Positions 16,344 through 40,020 are shown, numbered from the stretch's first letter. The stretch: 64,000 nt of DNA from an uncultured delta proteobacterium (GCA_963815115.1 CAWFFN010000005.1:96001-160000), one strand, 5' to 3'. Notes: generated from the letters alone by a model not told the origin. Translations and numbers: made by a program.

Positions 16344-18733
16344 CTACTTGCAGGTGAGATCGGACGGACACGAGTCTCCCGCAGCGCACAGGGTCCCCGC
16401 GGCCGGGACCACCTGCGGCCACCAGTTGTCGATGCAGCAGTTCATCCGCCTGATGGCCGCCGCGTAGGGGCCGTTCAGATTCGAGAGCTGGCCGACCAGC
16501 GTGCTGCCGTCGCCGGAGAAGAGCCCGTGCTCGTCCGGATCGACGAACGGGTCCGTCAGCTGCACCGAGGGAACGTTCGCGGCGTTGTGCCCGGGGGTGA
16601 TGTAGAGCTTGAGCGTCCGGGGCTCGCACAGCCTGCCGCACGGGACCGGACTACCGTTCGCGCTCGGACAGGAGGGACAGTCGTCGTTCGTGGCGCAGGC
16701 GACGCTCGGGTCGTTGCGACACCAGCGCGTATCCCTGGCCGCGCAGGCGTAGCCGCTGCCCAGCAGGGAGGTGCAATCCCCGTCGTCCAGACACACCGGC
16801 CCCATCCGGCAGCGCCCCGCCAAACAGACGCTTCCTGCCGGGCAGCCTGCCGTCGCCGCGCACGACGTTTCGGCCACCGCCATGGCGCAGTGGTCACCCA
16901 GGCAGAAGTCGCCTGCCGCGCAGTCGCTGGAAGTCGTACACGAGGGTTCAGCGAGCTTCGTGCATCGACCGACACTTCCCGGTCGTGTGAGGAGGTAGCG
17001 GCTCTGCGTCGGCGACGTGGGCCGCTCGGTGTGATGGCCGCAGAGCGCATGTCGCAGGGTCTCGGGGGCCGCGGCACCGCCCGGCGCCCAGGGAAGATAG
17101 GGCCGCAAGTCGTGGCCGTCGCATGCCGAGCCGTCGCTGCTCTGTGGACACGGCTGGCCGGCGGGTGTCCCGGCGGCATACCCGACCACGGTCGGCAGCA
17201 CGTCGACCCCGTTGGCGAGGGCCGAGGTCTCTCGAGGAGTCGGTGGGGCGACCTGCTGGGGGTCCCAGGATGGAACGTCGGGCAGGACCCGCGGGTCGAA
17301 GACGAGAAGCCGCGTCCGATAGCCGTTTTCGGTGAAGGCGTGCTTCGACCTGGGCAGGAACCACCCGTTGTCCGCGAGGTACAGGATGATCGTGTTGCGG
17401 CCCAGGTCCGGGCTCACCCCACTCCAGGTCCCCGAGCATGCTCCTGGTGTCGTGACGTCGAAGCGGCTCCGGCCGTCGGCTCCGATGCAGTGAGGCGCCG
17501 TCTCGGCGACCAGGAAGTGCCGGAGCTCGCGGATGTTGTCGTCGACCCACCACATGCTCGCGTAGAAATCGTGGCCCGTCCCGAAATTGGTCTCGTTGAA
17601 CGCCTGCACCGCGGGTGGACAGCTACTTCCGGTGCACCACTTCCCGAGATCCATCACGCCGCCGAGCGGGAACAGCCCGGCGCCTCCGAACAGGTAGTCG
17701 CGGATGGGCTGCGGCGCACGGAGACCTTGATGTGGGATGCGGGGCGCATGCCAGACGAAGAAGCGCTGCACGGCATAGTCCGCCGGCGTGGCCGCGGGAT
17801 CCTTGTAGAGCAGCATGTCGATGAAGTTGAAGACGTCGCTCATCCGGCTCGTCGTGAACGGCGAATAGGCGGCGCCGATCGCGGTCCCGCACCGCGGGGG
17901 TGATCCCGGCGGTCCCGCCACGCAGTCGTTGCGGCCCAGCTTGCGCCCGCTCGTCTTCGTGACAGCGTCGAAGCCCGGCTCACCGGGCGAGGCGGCGAAC
18001 TTGCCTCCGAGCAAGGTGCAGTAAGCGCCGACGGCCGCATTCGAGTCGTAGGGATCTGGCGTGGTCGCGGCGACGCCCTCGAGCCGGTGCAACGCCTGAC
18101 CCACGGTCACGTACGCGTCCGCGACGCGCCGGACGCCGTTGAAACTTCGCTGGTAGCGGCCGGTCAGGATCGAATCGAGGGACGGAAAACACCAGCTCGC
18201 CGTGTTGTGAGCCACCGGGAAGACCGTCCCGTAGCCGGCGAGGAGGTCGAGGTTCGGCGTCTTCGGAGGGGAATGGGCGTGCCGCTCTGCACGCTCCGAC
18301 ATTCGCCCGCCGTGCCATAGTGACAAGCACCCTGGTCGTCCGCAATGAACAGGATGACGTTGGGGCGCGCCGTGGTCGACCCCGGGATGCGTGGCACCGT
18401 CTCGGTGGGACAGGTTCCGCTGGCGGGGCACGCGTTGCCGCCCGGGCACACGCCCTCGATCGTGGGACAACACGGCTTCCGGCCGGGTACGTGGTGCGGC
18501 GAGTAGAAGACATGCGGCGGCTCGCAGAGCGGGCCAACCCGCTTCGACCACTGAACCGATACGCGTGCGTACGCGGGGACGCCGAGCGTCGAGACAAGCG
18601 CCAGCAGCATCGCCGCACAGCGTCGCTTGCGGTGTGAATCGACGAGCGAGCGCTGTGTGACCGTCGTTCCGGTGCGCCGCGCCAGCGAGGCTCTGCCGAT
18701 CGAAGACATCACACCCGCTTGCCCACCGTCCAT
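16344..18733 (-). CDS. Secreted Cys-rich sulfatase-fold protein, paralogue A (frameshift ~18270)
   Basis: RPNVILFIADDQG, ASWCFPSLDSILTGRY, HAPRIPH, WWVDDNI, YLADNGW, DVLPT. ORFs 18164..18733 and 16344..18551 join at a short C/G run. GAGGA RBS before ATG18733. Confidence 0.8.
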
Positions 18734-18837
18734 CGTATGTCCTCAGGCGTGAGCGAACGAATGGTACGAGCGCCGTTTGGAGACACGCTCGCCGAGGCCT
18801 TCACAGGGTCATACCTCTGCCCCTCGTTGGTCGTCAG

Positions 18838-18885
18838 GTAGGAGTCATCAGCCACCGCGGCGGTTATACGGCGGACTCCATCGCC
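18838..18885 (-). ncRNA. Fluoride (crcB) riboswitch 1
   Basis: Minus strand GGCGATGGAGTCCGCC-GTATAACCGCCGCGGTG-GCTGATGACTCCTAC. Canonical 5' and 3' motifs; pseudoknot GGAGTC/GACTCC. Confidence 0.92.
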
Positions 18886-18900
18886 GTGTTGCGGCGGTGA

Positions 18901-27787: not shown

Positions 27788-30763
<2,976 letters not shown>

Positions 30764-30803
30764 GGCATCCCTCCTTCTCGCTGCTGGGGGCGCGGTGTCC
30801 CGA

Positions 30804-31322
30804 TCAGCGACGCCGCCGCTGGCTTCGGGTCGACGCGTAGCCTGCCACATCGCGGGGCGTCACCGAGAGCGCCCGGTACGAGAGGCGCCGGAACACCACA
30901 CCATGGGAGGCGGCGACGTCGCCGACGGCGTCGAACGCCTGGTCGTCGCTGACGACCTCGAGCACGTCCCCCGCCCGCGCGCCCGCGAGCCAGACGCCGG
31001 CCGCCACCGCGATGCGCAGATCGCTCCAGTCCTTCACCCCGGCCACGGGCGCGCTGTGCGCCAGCGTCGCGCCGCGGCGCGCCAGCAAGCTCGCGGTCTC
31101 CTGCCCCACGACGCGCCAGTTGCCCATCGCGACGAACGTCACGCCAGGACCGAGTTGGATGAGCTCGAGGTGATCGAGCACCGCGGCCACATCCTCGGGA
31201 CGGCTCGTGTTCTCCACGTCGAAGAACACGGCGCGGAGCGATCGCCCGGACGGCGGGGGTCCGTCCGAGGGCAGGCTCCCTCCGGTATCGTCCATCAGCA
31301 CCTCGTTCCCGGCTCCGCTCAT
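30804..31322 (-). CDS. NYN (PIN-like) domain protein
   Basis: VFFDVEN, KDWSDLRIAV, VVSDDQAFD acidic motifs. Confidence 0.72.
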   Translation of the reverse strand: MSGAGNEVLMDDTGGSLPSDGPPPSGRSLRAVFFDVENTSRPEDVAAVLDHLELIQLGPGVTFVAMGNWRVVGQETASLLARRGATLAHSAPVAGVKDWSDLRIAVAAGVWLAGARAGDVLEVVSDDQAFDAVGDVAASHGVVFRRLSYRALSVTPRDVAGYASTRSQRRRR

Positions 31323-31489
31323 CTCACGTCCCCCGGCCGTTCTGCGGGCAGCCGACACAGGGCGAGTGCAGCCCCGTGGACGCGGATTGGTCGCCCCTGC
31401 GCGGCCCGCTCGAGCAGCGCGCGCGCCGCCGGATCGCGGATCGTGCGACCAGGAAGTGGGGATCGGACTGCGTCATCCGGTCACGACCG

Positions 31490-31911: not shown

Positions 31912-33111
31912 CTACCTCCCGTGTCGCGCGCCTGCGCGCGCGTGCACCTCGGCTTCCGGCGCCGGCGTCTTGACCGGCCCCGCCTCCACCTGCGGCTGGA
32001 AGAACGTCTGCGCCACGATCGTCGGCACGACGGCGCTGCCGATGACGACCGTGACCAGCACGGTGTACTGCGTCTGGTCGATGTAGTGGTTCTCGAGACC
32101 GAAGAGCGCCGAGATGGTACCGAAGGTGAGTCCGGTGGCCATCATGAGCGTCGTGTAGTTGGCTTCCCGACGTGGCAGCCGGAATGCGCGCGCCACCGGC
32201 CACACGCCGATGAACTTCGCACCCAGCTTGACGCCGAGGAGCGCGATCACGAGGCCGGCGCTCGTCGCCAGCGCGGGGAGCGAGACGAAGAGCCCCGCCT
32301 TCAGGAAATAGAACGGCGTCAGCATGGTGAAGGCTATCGAGCGCATCCGGGTGACGAGGATGCGGTCCTGCAGGAAGACCCCCGCCACAACGAGCCCGAT
32401 CAAGTATGCGGGCAGCACGGCCTCGCTGCGCGCCGTCGTGGCAAGGCCGCCGAGGAAGAAGAGCACCAGGAAGAGCAACTTCACCTCCGGTTCGCTCACC
32501 CGGCTCGCCCCGAACGTGCTGATGACCGCGCGCATCATCCGAGGCAGGTAGCGCAACACCACTGCAAGGATCGCCACGAAGACGATCAGCCAACGGTTGA
32601 AGTCCGCGAAGAATACACCCAGCGCCAGGACCGTCCCGAAGTCGGTCACGAAGCAGGCGGCGAGAATCATCTTCCCGATGCTCCTGCTGCTGAGCCCGGT
32701 CTCGACCATCACCGCGTAGACCACGGCGACCGACGTGGTCGAGAGCGCGATGCCACAGATGAGCGCCCCCTCGTACGTCCAGCCGATCACCCAGGAGGCG
32801 AAGGCCCACGCCGCGAGGAAGGGCACCAGGAACGACACGATGCCGATCGTCAGCGCAGCCTTGAGGTGCGTACGCAGCGAGTCGGGATCGATCTCGGCGC
32901 CGGCGAGGAAGGTGAGCAGACCCGCACCGAAGGTGGCGAGGAAGTTGATCCAGTCTGTGGTGTGGAAGCCCAGGAAGTTACCCGCGACGACGCCCATCCC
33001 GATCTCGAGCAACGCGACGGAGATGCCAGTGCGGATCGAGAGCACGCTGGCGACGAAGGCGAGCAGCATCCAGGCCGCCGCGATGAACCAGACGTTGGTT
33101 ATGTGCTCCAT
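31912..33111 (-). CDS. Cation:proton antiporter (CPA2-like)
   Basis: About 12 TM; LTFLAGAEID, ALSTTSVAVV, ACFVTDFG, PFYFLKAG. Confidence 0.88.
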   Translation of the reverse strand: MEHITNVWFIAAAWMLLAFVASVLSIRTGISVALLEIGMGVVAGNFLGFHTTDWINFLATFGAGLLTFLAGAEIDPDSLRTHLKAALTIGIVSFLVPFLAAWAFASWVIGWTYEGALICGIALSTTSVAVVYAVMVETGLSSRSIGKMILAACFVTDFGTVLALGVFFADFNRWLIVFVAILAVVLRYLPRMMRAVISTFGASRVSEPEVKLLFLVLFFLGGLATTARSEAVLPAYLIGLVVAGVFLQDRILVTRMRSIAFTMLTPFYFLKAGLFVSLPALATSAGLVIALLGVKLGAKFIGVWPVARAFRLPRREANYTTLMMATGLTFGTISALFGLENHYIDQTQYTVLVTVVIGSAVVPTIVAQTFFQPQVEAGPVKTPAPEAEVHARAGARHGR

Positions 33112-33346
33112 CGTCCGCCCTCCGTCTCGCCGGCCCGTCTGCGGGCGCATCCGGGCGACGAGCGCCCGGTCGTGACGACGCGATCGCGGCCACGGGGTCG
33201 AACGGTCCCTCGAGTGGCGCCGGTGAAGTCACGCCCTGCGACCGCGCTGCCCGGGACGCCGCCCCGCGTGCGCCAAGCCCTCTCGCAACCCGTCGGGCCG
33301 CGGTGCCTGGCTGTCTGCTGTGGGACCCCTCCCATGTGTTCTCCAG

Positions 33347-33398
33347 GTAGGGGTCATCAGCCCTGAGGGCGACTGTGCGGCGAACCCCATCCAAACCG
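33347..33398 (-). ncRNA. Fluoride (crcB) riboswitch 2
   Basis: Minus strand GGTTTGGATGGGGTTCGCC-GCACAGTC-GCCCTCAGGGC-TGATGACCCCTAC. Compensatory pseudoknot GGGGT/ACCCC; 5' P1 strand is imperfect. Confidence 0.78.
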
Positions 33399-33433
33399 GC
33401 AACAGAGGCCGCCGTCACCCGCGGTTTGGGATG

Positions 33434-34680
33434 TCAGCGCGCCCGCAGCAGGGCCGCCGCCCCGACAGCTCCCATCACCGCCGCGTAGCCGAAGCCGGCG
33501 GCCGGCGAGACGGAGGCCAGAGCCATCCCACCAGCGCGCTGGCCACCAGGTCGCCCACGCCGTTGACCGCCGCGAGTGCGCCGAAGCCCGTGCCGCGCAG
33601 GGGCTCCGGCAGCAGCTCAGCGGCAACGGCGCGCTCGAGCACCTCCTCCGCAGACAGCGCCAGCCCGGCGAGGACGAAGAGTCCCGCCAGGACGAGGAGG
33701 CTCGGTCTCGCCGGGGCGACGAGGAAGCCCGCGGCCATGCCGCTGAAGACGAGATAGCCGCCGGCGAGCACGCGGCGGGCGCCGAAACGCTCGCCGAGCA
33801 CGCCGATGGGGTAGGCTGACACGGCGTGCACGAGATTGTGCAGGACATACAGGGCCACGGCTCCGCGCGCGGGGGTGAGGAGACCGGACGACGGGAGCAT
33901 CTCGACCGCGCGCAGGACGAGCAGCGAGCGCGCGAAATCACCGAGCCCGAAGAGGAACACCGCGCCGAGAAACGCCTTGAAGCGGCGGGGCAAGCCGGCC
34001 AGGCTCGCGCGCAGCGGTTGGCGCCGCCGCACCCGCGCGATCTCCCGCACGCTCGCGAAAGCCAGCACCGACAGGACTCCCGGCACGAGTGTGAGGGCAA
34101 AGATCGGCCGGTACGCGAGGTGCCCCATGAGGACGAGGGCGACGAGCGGACCGACGACCGCACCTGCGGTATCCATGGTGCGATCGAAGCCGAACGCCCG
34201 ACCGTAGGCCCACGCCGGCACCGCCTCGGCGAGCATCGCGTCGCGTACCGGGCTGCGCATCCCGCGGCCCGTCCAGCTGATCGCGCGGACGGCGAAGACG
34301 CCGAACGGGCTGCGGGCGAGCGCGAAGGCCGCCATGCCGACCCCGGTCGCGGCATACCCCACGATGCCGATGGGCTTGCGATGTCGGAGCCCGTCGCTGA
34401 ACCAGCCCGACACGATCTTCGCCGCCGTGGAGAGGGCGTCGGACACGCCTTCGAGCAGCCCAAAGGTCGCTGCCGAGCCACCGACGCTGCTGAGGAGGAA
34501 CATCGGTAGCACGGCGGTCGCCATCTCGTGGCCGGCGTCGGAAAACAGGCTCGCGAGGCCGAACGCCAGGATGTTCCGGCTGAACCAGTCGGAGCCGGCG
34601 ATCGGAACGGCCCCTGCCCGGGATCCGGCACCGTCAGCGTCCAGGGACTTGTCCGCGCCTCGCTCGTCGCGTCTTGCCAT
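33434..34680 (-). CDS. MFS transporter (frameshift ~33518 near C-terminus)
   Basis: GLASLFSDAGHEM, GWFSDGLRHRKP, GRGMRSPVRDA, AFGFDRTMDTAGA. The shifted frame supplies the last TM ...GFGYAAVMGAVGAAALLRAR-TGA. Confidence 0.88.
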
Positions 34681-34737
34681 GCGTCCTCCTGGAGCTCCGC
34701 ATGGCATGCGCATGATCTCCCGCCGTGCGGCTCGTTG

Positions 34738-34793
34738 GCAGGAGTCATCACCCCGACGTGCTACGCGGGGAATTCGGGCGGACCCCATCGCCC
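34738..34793 (-). ncRNA. Fluoride (crcB) riboswitch 3
   Basis: Minus strand GGGCGATGGGGTCCGCCC-GAATT-CCCCG...CGGGG-TGATGACTCCTGC, about 57 nt before the MFS start. Confidence 0.85.
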
Positions 34794-34930
34794 GTCGGTA
34801 CGTCTGCAGCGTGGATATTCGCCGTTCCTGTCTGCGTCAACGCCGCCGGGAAGGCATGGCGGTGCTCCTGCGGGAGCCGGCGCCTTGTCGCGTCGTGCGA
34901 ACGTTGCTAGGTTCCAACCAGCTAATCGGC

Positions 34931-34985
34931 GGGCATGGGGTGCGCCCGGAACCGCCGCCGGTCACCCGGCGGCTGATGACTCCTC
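34931..34985 (+). ncRNA. Fluoride (crcB) riboswitch 4 (variant)
   Basis: GGGCATGGGGTGCGCCC-GGAACC-GCCGCCGG TCAC CCGGCGGC-TGATGACTCCTC. Lacks one base of the GAUG core; about 25 nt before the dynamin ATG, in an operon with fluC. Confidence 0.78.
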
Positions 34986-35010
34986 GACCGAACGTAAACC
35001 CGAGGACATC

Positions 35011-36738
35011 ATGCCCGCCGCCGCACAGCCAACCGCAACCACGCCGCCCGCGGAGCCGCTGCATCACCTAGCGACGCTCGCGGAGGCGGTCGGTCTCGCC
35101 GGCGTCGCCGACGAGGCGCGGGCCTTTGCCGGGCGCGTCGCCGAGGGGCGCTTCTTCGTGGCCTGCGTGGGGCAGTTCAAGCGCGGGAAGTCCACCCTGC
35201 TGAACGCTCTGGTCGGCGACCCTGTCCTGCCGACCGGCGTCGTGCCCGTCACCGCGGTCGTGACCGTCGTCCGACACGGAGCGGGGCGGCGGGCGCGCGT
35301 GCGCCACGTCCACGGGGACTGGGAAGACGTCCCCGTCGATCGGCTTGCCGACTACGTGACCGAGGACGGGAACCCGGGGAACCAGCGGCGCATCGCCGGT
35401 GTCGAGGTCTTCGTTCCCCATCGCCTCCTCGCCGCCGGGATGTGCCTCGTCGACACCCCCGGCCTCGGCTCCGTCTTCACCGCGAGCACGGAGGCCACTC
35501 GCGCCTTTCTCCCCCACCTGGACGCCGCCGTGATCGTGCTCGGCGCCGACCCGCCGATCTCCGCCGAGGAGCTGGAGCTGGTCGCCGCTGCGGCCGGACA
35601 GGTGACCGACCTCATCGTCGTCTTCAACAAGGCGGATCGCCTGTCCGACACCGAGCGGACGGATGCGCGCGCGTTCACCGACCGTGTGCTCCGCGAACGC
35701 CTCGGCCATTCTGTCGGCCGCATCCTCGATGTCAGCGCCACCGAGCGCCTCGCAGCGACGGGCCCGGCGCGCGACTGGGACGCCCTGTGTCTCGCGCTCG
35801 AGACGCTGGCGGTGCGCTCGGGCGCGGACCTGGTGCGCGCGGCGGAGGCCAGAGGACTGCGCGTGCTCACGGGACGCTTGCTGGGCGAGCTGGACGAGCG
35901 TCGCGACGCGCTCCTCCGCCCGCTGGACGAGTCCGTCGCACGGATCGAGGTGCTGCGCCGGAGCGTCGCGGAGGCCGAGGATGCGCTCGCCGACCTCCAC
36001 TATCAGCTCGCCGGCGAGCAGGAGCGGCTCACGCGCGAGCTGGGCGACCGGCTCCGGGGCTTCCTCGCCAAGGCGATCCACCAGGCCCGGCGCGCGTTCG
36101 CGCGCTCGATGGAGCCATCCCGCGGGCGCCGCGGCAAGGCCCTGCGCGAGGATGCCGTTCAGCAGGCGCAGGGCGTTGCGCGAGCCGTCTTCGACCGCTG
36201 GCGCGTCGAGGAGGCGCCTGCAGCCGAGGCGCGATACCGCGAGACGTCGCGCCGCTTCGTCGACACCGCGAACGCGTTTCTCACCCGCATCGGGTCGGCC
36301 GCTGCCTTCGACGCAGTACACGTCCCCCACGTCCTGGGCGAGGAGACCGGCTTCCGCGTCACGAGCGACCTTCGCTACACGGAGCTGCTGTACCTCACCA
36401 TGCCGCCGCCGCTTGCTCGCCCGCTTCTGATCCTCCTCACGCGACGGCAGGAGTTCCGTCTCGTGAGCCGTCGTGGCGCCGACTACCTCGAACGGCTCGT
36501 CTTCACGAATGCGCATCGGGTCACCAACGCGCTGATCGAGCAGGCCCTGGAGAGCCGTCGCCGGCTGGAGGCGGACCTCGGGCACCAACTGTACGAGGTC
36601 GTCCGTTGTGCCGAACGGGCGCTGGCGGAGGCGCGAGCCTACCAGGCCAGGGGGCAGGCGGCCGTCGAGGCGGAGCTCCACCGCCTCGAATCATTGCGCG
36701 ACGCGGTGGCCACGCTGACACCGCCCGGTGGCCCGTGA
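35011..36738 (+). CDS. Bacterial dynamin-like GTPase
   Basis: G1 GQFKRGKST, G2 PVT, G3 DTPG, G4 NKAD and a long helical C-terminal stalk. GAGGA RBS before ATG35011. Confidence 0.88.
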   Translation: MPAAAQPTATTPPAEPLHHLATLAEAVGLAGVADEARAFAGRVAEGRFFVACVGQFKRGKSTLLNALVGDPVLPTGVVPVTAVVTVVRHGAGRRARVRHVHGDWEDVPVDRLADYVTEDGNPGNQRRIAGVEVFVPHRLLAAGMCLVDTPGLGSVFTASTEATRAFLPHLDAAVIVLGADPPISAEELELVAAAAGQVTDLIVVFNKADRLSDTERTDARAFTDRVLRERLGHSVGRILDVSATERLAATGPARDWDALCLALETLAVRSGADLVRAAEARGLRVLTGRLLGELDERRDALLRPLDESVARIEVLRRSVAEAEDALADLHYQLAGEQERLTRELGDRLRGFLAKAIHQARRAFARSMEPSRGRRGKALREDAVQQAQGVARAVFDRWRVEEAPAAEARYRETSRRFVDTANAFLTRIGSAAAFDAVHVPHVLGEETGFRVTSDLRYTELLYLTMPPPLARPLLILLTRRQEFRLVSRRGADYLERLVFTNAHRVTNALIEQALESRRRLEADLGHQLYEVVRCAERALAEARAYQARGQAAVEAELHRLESLRDAVATLTPPGGP

Positions 36739-37106
36739 AGGGGGTTCTCTGGGTCGGCCTGGGCGGCTTTGTCGGGGCCAACGCCCGCTACCTGCTCGCG
36801 ACCTGGATCGCGGGACGCGCGGGCACCACCTTCCCGCTCGGGACGTTGGTCATCAACCTCTCGGGCAGCTTCGTCCTGGGCCTGCTCGTCGGTGTGCTCG
36901 AGAATCACGTCACTCCGCCGACGCTGCGGCTGGCGCTCGCCACCGGATTCCTCGGCGCCTATACCACGTTCTCGACGTTCACCTACGAGACGATTCGACT
37001 GGTCGAGGAAGGCAGCGTCCTGCTGGCGGCGCTCAACGCCGGCGGGAGCCTCGCACTCGGGCTCGGCGCCGTCTTCGGCGGCCTCGGTCTCGGGAGAGCC
37101 CTGTGA
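36735..37106 (+). CDS. crcB: Fluoride channel Fluc/CrcB
   Basis: GGFVGANARY, FPLGTLVINLSGSF, TGFLGAYTTFSTF signature. GTG overlaps the dynamin TGA. Confidence 0.95.
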   Translation: MKGVLWVGLGGFVGANARYLLATWIAGRAGTTFPLGTLVINLSGSFVLGLLVGVLENHVTPPTLRLALATGFLGAYTTFSTFTYETIRLVEEGSVLLAALNAGGSLALGLGAVFGGLGLGRAL

Positions 37107-37137
37107 CGCCCGGCCCACGGCACGAGGAGGTATCGTC

Positions 37138-38418
37138 ATGCGCGGCAAACGGATGACCATCTTCATCGACGAGACCGACCATTGGGGGCACCGGTCGCTG
37201 TACCTCGCCATCCTCGAGCGCCTGAAGGCCGCCGGATGCGCCGGCGCCACGGCCGTCCGCGGCGTCGCCGGGTTCGGCCCGCACTCGCAGATCAAGACCG
37301 CACGTCTGGTCGACGTGGTGATGGCGCTGCCGATCGTGATCAGCGTGATCGACCTCCCTGACCGCATCGAGCGCTTCGCCGGCGAGGTGGCGGAGATGAT
37401 GTCGGGGGGGGTGGTCGTGCTGGAGGATGTCGAGGTCCACTTCTACTCCGCCGCCTTCCGTGGGGGCCTGCCCGACGTCGAGGTGGCCGACGTCATGTCC
37501 CGCGCCCCGGAATTCGTCACGCCGGACACGCCGCTGGTGGAAGTGGTCCGGCGGTTGCTCGAGCGCGACTACACGGTGCTGCCCGTGGTGGACCCGGAGC
37601 GCCGGGTGGTGGGAGTCATCGGCGACCAAGACCTGCTCGCCCGGGGCGTCATCAGCGAGAGCCTGCACATGCACCGGGCGACCGCTGAAATCCCGCCCGA
37701 CACGCTGCAGCGGCTCACGTCGAACGGCGGCGTGGTGCGCGACGTGATGACCGCACCGGCCACGACGGTGCAGGAATCCGCGCGCGTCCCCGAAGCCGCG
37801 CGGCTGATGCACGAGCGACATCTGAAGCGGCTGCCCGTCGTCGACGACGCGGGCCACCTGGTGGGCGTGGTCGGTCGGCTCGATATCCTGAGCAGCATCG
37901 CGGCCGGCTATACGCGCAGGACGGCCCCGCGCACCGCGGGGCTTCCACAGGAACATCGCACGGTGGGCGAGATCATGGAGCGCGGGGTTCCGACCGTGGC
38001 AGAGACGACGCCCCTCGGCGACGTGGTGGAGCGCCTGCTCGACTCGGCGGTCCACGAGGTGATCGTGGTCGACGCTGAGGGGCGGCCACTCGGCATCATC
38101 ACGGCCGCCAACGTCTTGGTGAGAGCGGACCCGGTGGAGCGGCCCGGCCTGCTCACCCAGCTGCGCAGCCGCTGGAACGCGGAGGCCAAGCGGCAGGTGC
38201 GCCGCGTGTACGGCCAGCGGGCGGCGGACGTGATGGCGTCGCCTGTGATCACCGTCCGCGACACCGACCCGGTGATGACGGCGCTCACGCTCTCGGCCAC
38301 GAAGCACGTGAAGCGTCCACCGGTCGTGGACGGCGAGGGGCGGCTCGTGGGGGTGGTGGGGCGACCGGCCCTGCTGGCGGCGTCGCTCGACGTGGACACC
38401 GGCGACGCGGAGAAATGA
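37138..38418 (+). CDS. DUF190 (PII-like) domain fused to two CBS pairs
   Basis: IFIDETDHW...AGATAVRGVAGFG...LPIVISVID, then four CBS motifs (VADVMS, LPVVD, VRDVMT, VGEIME, AADVMA). Confidence 0.88.
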   Translation: MRGKRMTIFIDETDHWGHRSLYLAILERLKAAGCAGATAVRGVAGFGPHSQIKTARLVDVVMALPIVISVIDLPDRIERFAGEVAEMMSGGVVVLEDVEVHFYSAAFRGGLPDVEVADVMSRAPEFVTPDTPLVEVVRRLLERDYTVLPVVDPERRVVGVIGDQDLLARGVISESLHMHRATAEIPPDTLQRLTSNGGVVRDVMTAPATTVQESARVPEAARLMHERHLKRLPVVDDAGHLVGVVGRLDILSSIAAGYTRRTAPRTAGLPQEHRTVGEIMERGVPTVAETTPLGDVVERLLDSAVHEVIVVDAEGRPLGIITAANVLVRADPVERPGLLTQLRSRWNAEAKRQVRRVYGQRAADVMASPVITVRDTDPVMTALTLSATKHVKRPPVVDGEGRLVGVVGRPALLAASLDVDTGDAEK

Positions 38419-38929
38419 GTCAGGTCATTCGGGGGGTCAGCGCGGGGAGCGCCGAAGCGGGGCCACGGACGTCTGCCGCCATTCGCCGACGATCTCCCCG
38501 GGGCTGCCTCTTGCGGACCTATCTAAAGATGTCGCATTGGCGTTGACAGATCGCGCCGCGCGGCCATCCGTCGGTCCCCGACCCCAGCGCCGCCCGGCTG
38601 TAGAGCTACTTGTCGTGCCCGACATGAAGGGGCCAGGCGAGTTCCCGCGCACCCATGGGTTGAACACGGTTGCGGCCGATCCGGGATGCTACAATGAAGT
38701 CAGCTGGAGATCCAGAAGAGGAGGCCGCATCGTGATGACGAAGTCGGGGAGGGAACAGCAGCGCCGGGGTTGCGCAAGGCGGGCGCCCCGCGCTGAGATC
38801 GAGGCTTCGTTGCTGGGCACAGCCGAAGCCCGACGTGTTCGGCGTGCAGCATGAGCTGCGGCACATCGTGCGGAGGCTCGAGGTGATTCCTGAATCGGCC
38901 GGACGAGAAGTTGTCACGGAGAAGGGACG

Positions 38930-39250
38930 ATGGTGACGAAGCCGCGCTCACGTCTGCGCGATGAGACCCTCATTGCGCTCCTCGGCCCCGGGGACACCGC
39001 CACCCTCTGCCAGTTCGGTGGCGGGCGGCGCGTGCCGAGCCACGCGCAGTACCTCGCGTGGCAGCGGCGGCTGCTGCTCCTCCACGACTGGCTGCACAAC
39101 GGCTACAGCCAGCGCGCGCTCGCGGCCAAGTACGGGCTGTCCCTCCCGGCCGTGAAGAAGCTCGCGACGTCCTACCTGCGCCAGAAGCGTCTCGCGGAAT
39201 TGCGCGGCACCACCGGACGCGGTCCGGCGTCGCCGAGGCGCGGTTCATGA
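38930..39250 (+). CDS. Mor/C-like phage transcription activator (HTH)
   Basis: LCQFGGGRRVPS...GYSQRALAAKYGLSLPAVKKL resembles the Mu Mor/C architecture. Confidence 0.55.
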   Translation: MVTKPRSRLRDETLIALLGPGDTATLCQFGGGRRVPSHAQYLAWQRRLLLLHDWLHNGYSQRALAAKYGLSLPAVKKLATSYLRQKRLAELRGTTGRGPASPRRGS

Positions 39251-39442
39251 CGCAGCCCTCCGTGGCCCAAGTGCTCGCCTGCCAGTGGCGAGAGCGGGCC
39301 ACGTTCAGCGCCCGAGTGGTTGCCCTCGAGCGTGCCCTCCAAGCCGACCTTGACCGCCTGCAAGACGCGCCGTTCACGCCGCGCGTCCCCGTGACCGTCC
39401 GGCTGACGCTCGACGAGCTGAGCTGTTTAGGTTTCCCAGGTA

Positions 39443-39556
39443 GTGGTGCCGGGCGGCAACAAGGCGGCGGTGGACCGTCTCGACGACGCTCCCGCCGCAA
39501 CGATCCGCAACCTATCCGCAACCTCCGAGGTCGCGGCTGAGCTGGGAGCACGCTAA
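39443..39556 (+). pseudogene. Probable tyrosine-integrase C-terminal remnant adjacent to tRNA 3' end
   Basis: Frame reads VVPGGNKAAVDRLDDAPAATIRNLSAT...-TAA, similar to tails after the catalytic Tyr of phage integrases (from recall). Contains CCGCAAC x3. Confidence 0.5.
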
Positions 39557-39573
39557 GCGTGCAGAATCGTGAG

Positions 39574-39646
39574 TGGAGCCGAGGGGAGTCGAACCCCCGA
39601 CCTCTAGAGTGCGATTCTAGCGCTCTCCCAGCTGAGCTACGGCCCC
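39574..39646 (-). tRNA. tRNA-Ala (anticodon CGC), CCA not encoded
   Basis: GGGGCCGTAGCTCAGCTGGGAGAGCG-CTAGA-ATCGCAC-TCTAG-AGGTCGGGGGTTCGACTCCCCTCGGCTCCA; G3:U70 pair. Confidence 0.96.
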
Positions 39647-39738
39647 ACAAGCGCGCCTGACGGCGCCGGACGGAGACCGCAGGCTATAGCCAGGCGACCC
39701 CGCGAAATCAACCGCCGAGCTCGACGGCGCGGGCGCGC

Positions 39739-40020
39739 TCAGCGCTTCGACGCCGGGGGCTTCACATTGATGATGAGATCGCCGTCCGTCGCCAGCGCCG
39801 CACCACCCTCGTGACGCTGCCACCCGTCTCCCCCTCGCTTCCAGCGGCTGATCTCTCGCGGCTGAGGCAGCTCGAGGCGGCGGCGGACGTCCTCCGCCAT
39901 GCGCTCGGCCCTGAGCAGATCGGTTGCGCGCGGCGTTTCGCTGCGCGGCTGATCGACCAGCCCGACAGCCCGAGAGCCCAGCAATCCGCCCAACATCAGC
40001 ATTGCCAGCATGGTGCGCAT
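39739..40020 (-). CDS. Small secreted hypothetical protein
   Basis: [18 protein letters not shown] signal-like N-terminus; fills the gap between the tRNA and copA. Confidence 0.45.

Follow-up and report, generated by a model that had tools for sequence, protein, structure and literature searches.

A short dynamin-like GTPase recurs in fluoride-riboswitch operons across several bacterial phyla

Bacterial fluoride defence is described, in the part of a 2024 review covered here, as export combined with pH and ion homeostasis and the overproduction of inhibited enzymes (PMC11139923). The locus studied here raises the question of why a dynamin-like GTPase should stand first in a gene string headed by a fluoride riboswitch; a conserved riboswitch-controlled protein of this kind would add a membrane-level arm to the defence. 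The locus occupies positions 34931-38418 of a 64,000-nucleotide stretch of DNA from an uncultured delta proteobacterium (GCA_963815115.1, CAWFFN010000005.1:96001-160000), hereafter the window, for which a first-pass annotation had proposed a membrane-remodelling and energy-sensing module tied to fluoride export. We found that members of the short (about 570 aa) subfamily of dynamin-like proteins (DLPs) to which the gene product belongs turn up repeatedly in the fluoride-riboswitch operons of several phyla.

The arrangement described in the first-pass annotation was confirmed in full, and its sequence reads as a single riboswitch-led gene string with the order DLP, crcB/Fluc, DUF190-CBS4. The fluoride riboswitch aptamer (crcB motif, RF01734; 34931..34984, + strand; Rfam 34.3 bits) is followed on the same strand by a predicted expression platform (34975..35013, minimum-free-energy fold) and by a gene for a 575-aa dynamin-like GTPase of the short 'dyn1' type (35011..36738, ATG to TGA), whose identity is borne out by Pfam Dynamin_N at 4.9e-24. 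The TGA of this gene overlaps the GTG start of the fluoride channel gene, as can be read directly from the sequence (GTGA, 36735-36738); the channel, crcB/Fluc, is 123 aa long (36735..37106, +; Pfam CRCB and TIGR00494). The third gene (37138..38418, +), with GGAGG 9-13 nt upstream of its ATG, encodes 426 aa in which Pfam recognises DUF190 (PII-like, UPF0166) joined to CBS in 4 stretches, that is, the two CBS pairs that had been called earlier. A scan for terminators and promoters over 33000-40000 returned 4 terminator-like sites, against 1.9 expected, with none convincing between the three operon genes. An opposite-strand 537-aa open reading frame (ORF; 35068-36681) was rejected as a mirror-frame shadow of the DLP gene, its codon-position GC being 0.88/0.49/0.80 against 0.80/0.51/0.88 in the DLP frame. 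The operon is a compact Binatia-type variant, with a single short DLP as first gene, an overlapping crcB and then the DUF190-CBS4 fusion.

Whether the tie between dynamin and fluoride reaches beyond this locus was examined in 74 distinct homologue loci, one genome per species, which carry DLP relatives at 33-60% identity with flanks of up to 6 kb and which were searched by tblastn with the window's proteins and with covariance models built from its riboswitches. At least 58 of the 74 contain a fluoride riboswitch. In at least 54 a same-strand riboswitch precedes the DLP gene by 15-5778 nt, and in 9 it is directly upstream (15-300 nt). The linkage, which the first-pass annotation had allowed might be unique to this locus, is thus widespread. 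Within 6 kb, crcB is found in 37 loci and DUF190 genes in 42, and riboswitch, crcB or DUF190 in 68; the adjacency of crcB and DUF190, earlier stated to be common, is indeed widespread among these loci. Furthermore, RF01734 was recovered in all 11 loci on which the Rfam threshold was checked (15 matches), among them matches to which the first model gave E 0.01-0.07.

By taxon label, the same-strand upstream riboswitch occurs in 44/60 Acidobacteriota, 4/4 Myxococcota, 2/2 'Deltaproteobacteria', 1/2 Binatota, 1/2 Methylomirabilota and 1/1 Gemmatimonadota loci, and is absent from the single Armatimonadota and the single Verrucomicrobiota locus. In five such genomes, which served as background, the number of RF01734 matches ranges from 2 to 5 and totals 17 over about 23 Mb; 9 of the 17 fall inside 13.6-kb DLP loci that each make up about 0.3% of their genome. 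Riboswitches are about 100 times denser in DLP loci (79 per 0.92 Mb) than in these five whole genomes (17 per about 23 Mb). Fluoride-riboswitch control of the DLP, as judged by position, is conserved across phyla and gene orders. According to their record titles, many of the homologue loci come from bog, palsa and peat metagenome-assembled genomes, an origin that fits an acid-soil setting; the entry of hydrogen fluoride (HF) at low pH is the stated rationale of fluoride-riboswitch operons in the covered part of the review (PMC11139923).

The same tie was seen in close relatives. The DLP (called at E <= 1e-20) is carried by eight of 61 same-class genomes, our own included, and in all seven others a riboswitch and/or crcB adjoins it (riboswitch in 5, crcB in 5). 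A genome of the same genus, G003, has the operon's own order, riboswitch-DLP-crcB-DUF190CBS; G017 and G014 have riboswitch-DLP-MFS, MFS being a major facilitator superfamily gene; G044 has DUF190CBS-crcB-DLP; riboswitch and crcB both stand beside the DLP in G012 and G006, and crcB is nearby in G026. Among the homologue loci, DLP-crcB-DUF190 recurs in L023 and DLP-MFS in L014.

What else travels with the DLP was read from the Pfam content of individual loci. L067 contains a riboswitch, an ORF of no assigned family, a universal stress protein, crcB, DUF190 twice, a long DLP, enolase and a short DLP; L017 includes pyrophosphatase; and in L010 the riboswitch directly precedes the DLP. In L044 a riboswitch is accompanied by a long DLP (687 aa), crcB, a 205-aa protein without family, three DUF190 domains (one two-domain ORF and one single-domain ORF), a weak AAA ATPase match and a short DLP. 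The riboswitch cargo named in the covered part of the review comprises exporters, Na+/H+ antiporters, pyrophosphatase, HAD-fold enzymes and enolase (PMC11139923), and the neighbours of the DLP are such fluoride-regulon genes (enolase, pyrophosphatase, Na+/H+ antiporter) together with the universal stress protein. The present operon resembles the fluoride-riboswitch resistance operons of that review in its riboswitch leader, its crcB/Fluc cargo and its Na+/H+ antiporter and enolase neighbours; it differs from them in that a dynamin-like GTPase is the first gene, one whose subfamily recurs in such operons. The terms 'dynamin', 'GTPase' and 'DUF190' have 0 occurrences in the review text (PMC11139923). 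No link between dynamins and a fluoride regulon was found in the literature searched, which did not cover the gene list of Baker et al. 2012, a list that may name GTPases. Near one Acidobacterial DLP locus a match to the Acido-Lenti-1 small RNA was also noted (L005 9601-9647, +; 42.2 bits, gathering score 37).

These counts divide the earlier proposal of a tie to fluoride export: the part concerning fluoride response holds, and the part concerning export is weaker, with crcB in 37 of the 74 loci against DUF190 in 42. Because crcB lies within 6 kb of the DLP in only half of the loci, the DLP appears to belong to the fluoride regulon as such and not to be an accessory of the channel. A helper role, in which the DLP would act on Fluc itself (insertion or pairing of the dual-topology dimer, clustering or turnover) and the gene overlap would set the stoichiometry of the two products, would suit the GTGA junction, the DLP-crcB-DUF190 order shared with G003 and L023, and the loci in which crcB is close. 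We regard it as unlikely, given the 37 loci with no crcB within 6 kb, the varying gene order (DUF190CBS-crcB-DLP in G044; DLP-MFS in L014, G017 and G014) and the genome's second crcB, which has no DLP beside it and no riboswitch found nearby.

We then considered the protein itself. Dynamin_N covers residues 50-207 of the DLP (85.7 bits against a cut-off of 27), and the P-loop GQFKRGKS, T81/T85, DTPG and NKAD are conserved in 101 aligned family sequences, without variation at G54, K57-S61, T81/T85, D148-G151 and D209 and almost without it at K207. As the G1-G4 residues are thus invariant or nearly so, the GTPase looks active. The family is large, with 1598 clusters at 50% identity at E <= 1e-30; nearly every one of the best 150 has the full length of about 570 aa. 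In sequence searches of the PDB the best match was IniA (6j72, 6.8e-16), followed by Campylobacter DLP2 and DLP1 (Cj-DLP, 5owv) and Nostoc BDLP (2j68). An AlphaFold2 model (predicted local distance difference test, pLDDT, 83.3; predicted TM-score 0.66) places a GTPase domain at about residues 45-250 before a long helical bundle with helices at 256-302, 305-372, 375-430 and 478-546. Foldseek searches with this model ranked IniA (2.5e-19) and BDLP (2.7e-17) first, both as full-length matches with probability 1.00, followed by Cj-DLP1/2, SynDLP and the mitofusins. The predicted fold is therefore IniA/BDLP-like, with a Dynamin_N GTPase and a helical neck/trunk bundle. The tip (residues 431-477) is modelled at pLDDT of about 53-75 and contains conserved E445, G447, F448, S452 and T457; no transmembrane segment was found in it. 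Assignment as a DynA or CrfC equivalog was rejected, since both NCBIfam scores are far under their cut-offs (DynA 55.5 bits, cut-off 1600; CrfC 38.3, cut-off 1146).

Operonic pairs are the usual arrangement of DLP genes in bacteria, according to the portion of PMC6104087 covered, and the first-pass annotation had likewise stated that such proteins often occur in pairs. This expectation fails here: a Dynamin_N scan of the 6.9-Mb genome (12 contigs, 100% complete) found no second dynamin, the only other match, on contig C7, being a GTPase of the Era type (MMR_HSR1 plus KH_2). A second DLP paralogue is found instead in 30 of the 74 homologue loci, at about 675-700 aa in the four checked by Pfam. 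As the only dynamin found in the genome, the DLP is not a spare copy of a housekeeping one.

Among characterised proteins, mycobacterial IniA (PDB 6j72/6j73; iniBAC operon) is the best match in both sequence and fold. The two are similar in length (606 against 575 aa), each is a bacterial DLP with a single GTPase, and IniA is induced by chemical stress; in the covered part of one report it is drug-induced and mediates membrane fission (PMC6715688). They differ in identity (20-21%), in TM-score (about 0.4, the hinge conformation being different), in partner genes and in inducer, which is cell-wall drugs for IniA and, as the leader sequence suggests, fluoride acting through an RNA switch for the DLP. 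Bacillus subtilis DynA, Campylobacter DLP1/DLP2 and Nostoc BDLP also share the Dynamin_N GTPase with helical neck and trunk, and their roles lie in the surveillance and tethering of membranes. The DLP differs from DynA, a fusion with two heads, and from the usual bacterial pairs in being unpaired in its own genome. DynA is reported, in the parts of the sources covered, to cluster at membranes upon exposure to pore-forming antibiotics and phage (PMC8844932, PMC12998192).

Collectively, these comparisons point to a fluoride-induced GTPase of the IniA/DynA kind that maintains or remodels membranes and is co-expressed with export, a reading that we prefer while giving it a little under an even chance; its membrane-remodelling part is suggested by knowledge of the family. 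The DLP would be an IniA/BDLP-type protein that binds membranes, is driven by GTP and is produced only in response to rising cytoplasmic fluoride; it would keep the cytoplasmic membrane sealed or remodel it by repair, fission or vesicle shedding, and Fluc would meanwhile let fluoride out down the membrane potential. When HF enters at low pH the pH gradient is dissipated, and Fluc relies on the membrane potential (PMC11139923, in part). Because HF entry collapses this gradient and Fluc can work only in a membrane that is intact and energised, sealing and export would cooperate. We know of no trigger or physiological role for most bacterial dynamins; the DLP subfamily would have a defined chemical inducer, so that the function of bacterial DLPs would become testable by a simple stimulus, NaF at acid pH.

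How fluoride would switch on the operon is suggested by its leader. The riboswitch (34931-34984, +) scores 34.3 bits (E 9.7e-6) against RF01734 and is the lowest-scoring of the window's matches over threshold. A covariance model rebuilt from 77 related riboswitch matches, R2, gave it 45.4 bits over 34922-34990. Alignment to RF01734, inspected by eye, showed P1 (GGGC/GCCC), P2 (GCCG.../...CGGC) and the pseudoknot GGGGU-ACUCC with one G-U to be all present, the criterion for the pseudoknot being that GGxGU pairs ACxCC. Folded without ligand, the leader is predicted to pair the 3' strand of the pseudoknot (GAUG..UCCUCG) with CAUC and with CGAGGA, the Shine-Dalgarno region (Shine-Dalgarno sequence at 35002-35006), and to pair an aptamer CAU with the DLP start codon (35011-35013). 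The minimum-free-energy fold of 34922-35030 reaches -53.7 kcal/mol (z -3.3), a stability matched by none of 200 shuffled sequences. We infer from this model that the leader has the layout expected of a translational ON switch with a competing expression platform. Without fluoride, the anti-Shine-Dalgarno stretch of the leader would pair with the Shine-Dalgarno sequence and the AUG; with fluoride bound, the aptamer would take that stretch into the pseudoknot and the DLP would be translated. Translation of crcB would be coupled to that of the DLP by the stop/start overlap, with DUF190-CBS4 next.

The riboswitches of L001-L074 also vary in concert, as noted without a formal count, between a 5' GNUGG element and a 3' element: GAUGG occurs with CUGAUGA, GGUGG with CCAAUGA, GUUGG with CAGAUGA, and the GAAGG type of the Acidobacteriaceae with CAGAUGAUGA. 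This covariation fits a long-range tertiary pair.

Several points weigh against the membrane-maintenance reading. At the level of the leader, the riboswitch passes the Rfam threshold barely (34.3 against a gathering score of 34) and as a local match only (model positions 10-56), and is thus borderline. Among the homologue loci, 16 of the 74 show no riboswitch within the 6-kb flanks, and since some of these 16 clusters start near the flank edge the riboswitch counts are lower bounds; six loci (L002, L003, L021, L061, L019 and L073) have no riboswitch, crcB or DUF190, L019 with an upstream flank of only 882 nt and L073 with a distant Akkermansia DLP at 33% identity. In many Acidobacterial loci the short DLP is accompanied by a long one, by an AAA+ ATPase and by a small helical protein. 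In our genome the Dynamin_N scan found no second DLP, and single queries with the ATPase (L044:5180-5965) and with the 205-aa protein (L044:3482-4096) drew no match, although such an empty answer shows little; the mechanism may therefore differ between lineages. The membrane role, moreover, is borrowed from distant relatives at 16-21% identity (Foldseek). Finally, the distribution of the DLP is patchy, with 8 of the 61 same-class genomes and 1 of 4 others of the same genus carrying it, and its frame looks interrupted in three relatives: in G003 (L078/L083) two frames meet near residues 356-378, in G012 (L080/L084) the halves are about 2.4 kb apart, and in G006 (L082) the middle part is missing. 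Patchy and apparently broken in some relatives, the DLP is therefore dispensable; the gene is accessory, mobile between arrangements and sometimes decaying.

Such a distribution would also be expected of a passenger, a DLP that serves another stress or conflict function, such as phage defence or envelope stress, and hitch-hikes in a mobile stress island. The patchiness and the decayed copies favour this, as do the phage role of DynA in the covered parts of the sources and a tRNA gene at 39574-39646 with lower G+C to its left (0.64-0.72 against 0.69-0.74). We consider it very improbable all the same, because in 9 loci the riboswitch lies directly upstream of the DLP, because the link persists where gene order or phylum differs, and because of the roughly hundredfold enrichment of riboswitches in DLP loci over five whole genomes.

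Fluoride might instead bear on the GTPase directly. Complexes of metal fluoride with GDP trap dynamin-family G domains, and if such complexes (AlF4-, MgF3-, BeF3-) jam the cell's GTPases, more DLP, or a fluoride-tolerant isoform, might be made under fluoride as compensation or decoy. This would parallel enolase and pyrophosphatase, which share operons with DLPs (L067, L017) and whose riboswitch control is explained in the covered part of the review as overproduction against inhibition (PMC11139923). Compensation is nevertheless rather unlikely: no other dynamin was found in the genome to compensate for, and the DLP is absent from 53 of the 61 related genomes searched, so that its activity is not a housekeeping one in need of protection. 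Alternatively, the DLP could itself be a fluoride effector, in which metal fluoride (with Mg2+, or with Al3+ in acid soils) and GDP, as a transition-state mimic, would lock G-domain dimers and drive membrane assembly for as long as fluoride is present, making the protein a scaffold, seal or vesicle-shedding device with DUF190 proteins as nucleotide- or ion-sensing partners. This is a long shot; if true, fluoride defence would have a branch that relies on something other than export.

Turning to the other two products of the operon, CrcB matches Pfam CRCB at 8.3e-28 (97.2 bits, cut-off 32.9) and NCBIfam TIGR00494 at 98.3 bits (cut-off 80.45). In 36 sequences N41, G71, F72, G74, T78 and S80 are invariant and F79/F82 nearly so, the residues from G71 to F82 lying within the stretch GFxGAYTTFSTF. 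The genome has two crcB genes, the second of which is on contig C12, where none of the genome's four RF01734 matches lies and where no DLP adjoins it.

The DUF190 domain of the third product spans residues 4-100 (6.6e-31; 106.9 bits, cut-off 23.4), and the CBS match over 4 stretches reaches 1.5e-47 (160.1 bits, cut-off 24). The N-terminal 100 residues match the PII-like DUF190/UPF0166 structural-genomics proteins PH1503 (2dcl; 1.9e-15, residues 5-99) and TM0021 (1o51; 2e-7), from which the protein differs in the fusion of DUF190 to two Bateman (CBS-pair) modules. A search with DUF190-CBS4 returned 1578 matches at E <= 0.001; all but two truncated entries among the best 120 of these contain both DUF190 and CBS, with identities of 50-91% (one is the window's own protein), and the closest relatives among the matches listed, at 91% and 83%, are labelled Candidatus Binatia. 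The fusion forms a large family of its own in Binatia and 'delta' lineages. CBS pairs serve in energy sensing elsewhere, and DUF190-CBS4 is most likely a ligand-sensing regulator. Co-folding of a CrcB dimer with the DUF190 domain (residues 1-108), run with separate alignments and no control runs, scored 0.16 against a mark of 0.32, a value that favours neither binding nor its absence. On DUF190 in connection with fluoride, nothing on topic was found among the titles and abstracts of the literature searched; the DLP operon gives a handle on this widespread neighbour of crcB.

The operon sits within a small fluoride island together with MFS, Na+/H+ exchanger and enolase genes. At a distance of 130 nt from the first riboswitch, a divergent fluoride riboswitch (34732..34801, - strand; Rfam 42.9 bits) leads the MFS transporter gene (33475..34713, -; start approximate, at about 34713; Pfam MFS_1 7e-28). 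Orthologues of this transporter at 65-69% identity adjoin the DLP in L014 (7700-8827), L076 (3200-4327), L079 (3218-4330) and L084 (311-793), and within the same class the gene travels with the DLP, in some cases immediately after it and in others led by a riboswitch of its own. Upstream of the Na+/H+ exchanger gene (31912..33150, -; Pfam Na_H_Exchanger 1.5e-35) lies a sub-threshold riboswitch-like element (33341..33401, -; Rfam 21.2 bits, E 0.029), which R2 scores at 27.5 bits (E 9.4e-6). Its pseudoknot GGGGU/ACCCC is a double compensatory change from the consensus GGAGU/ACUCC, its P1 aligns poorly, and it may be a real but atypical copy. The enolase gene lies at 27788..29074 (-), and the window's strongest riboswitch at 18832..18894 (-; Rfam 55.8 bits). 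The first-pass label 'riboswitch 4' for the operon's leader fits a window with three RF01734 matches over threshold and one below; a further candidate, 38453-38520 (+; E 0.17 in the first model), was dropped, as neither R2 nor Rfam at E <= 1 recovered it.

Of the genome's four RF01734 matches over the cut-off, three fall within the window. Behind the fourth (G000:C9:267757-267820, +; L087) comes an ORF that matches the NYN domain weakly, at 21 bits and below the cut-off, and a similar weak NYN-like ORF is present in the window's fluoride island (30804-31358, -). The strongest riboswitch (18832-18894, -) precedes a cysteine-rich sulfatase/alkaline-phosphatase-like gene (16344-18733, -), an unusual riboswitch cargo, which occupies two overlapping frames (18164-18733 and 16344-18551), indicating a frameshift or a sequencing error. 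The gene for IlvD, dihydroxy-acid dehydratase (29071-30850, -), likewise consists of two overlapping ORFs in different frames, matching ILVD_EDD_N positions 1-78 and 76-315, a split that suggests a frameshift or an assembly error. On the other side, 1.2 kb beyond the operon, the tRNA gene at 39574-39646 is on the minus strand and may mark the island edge.

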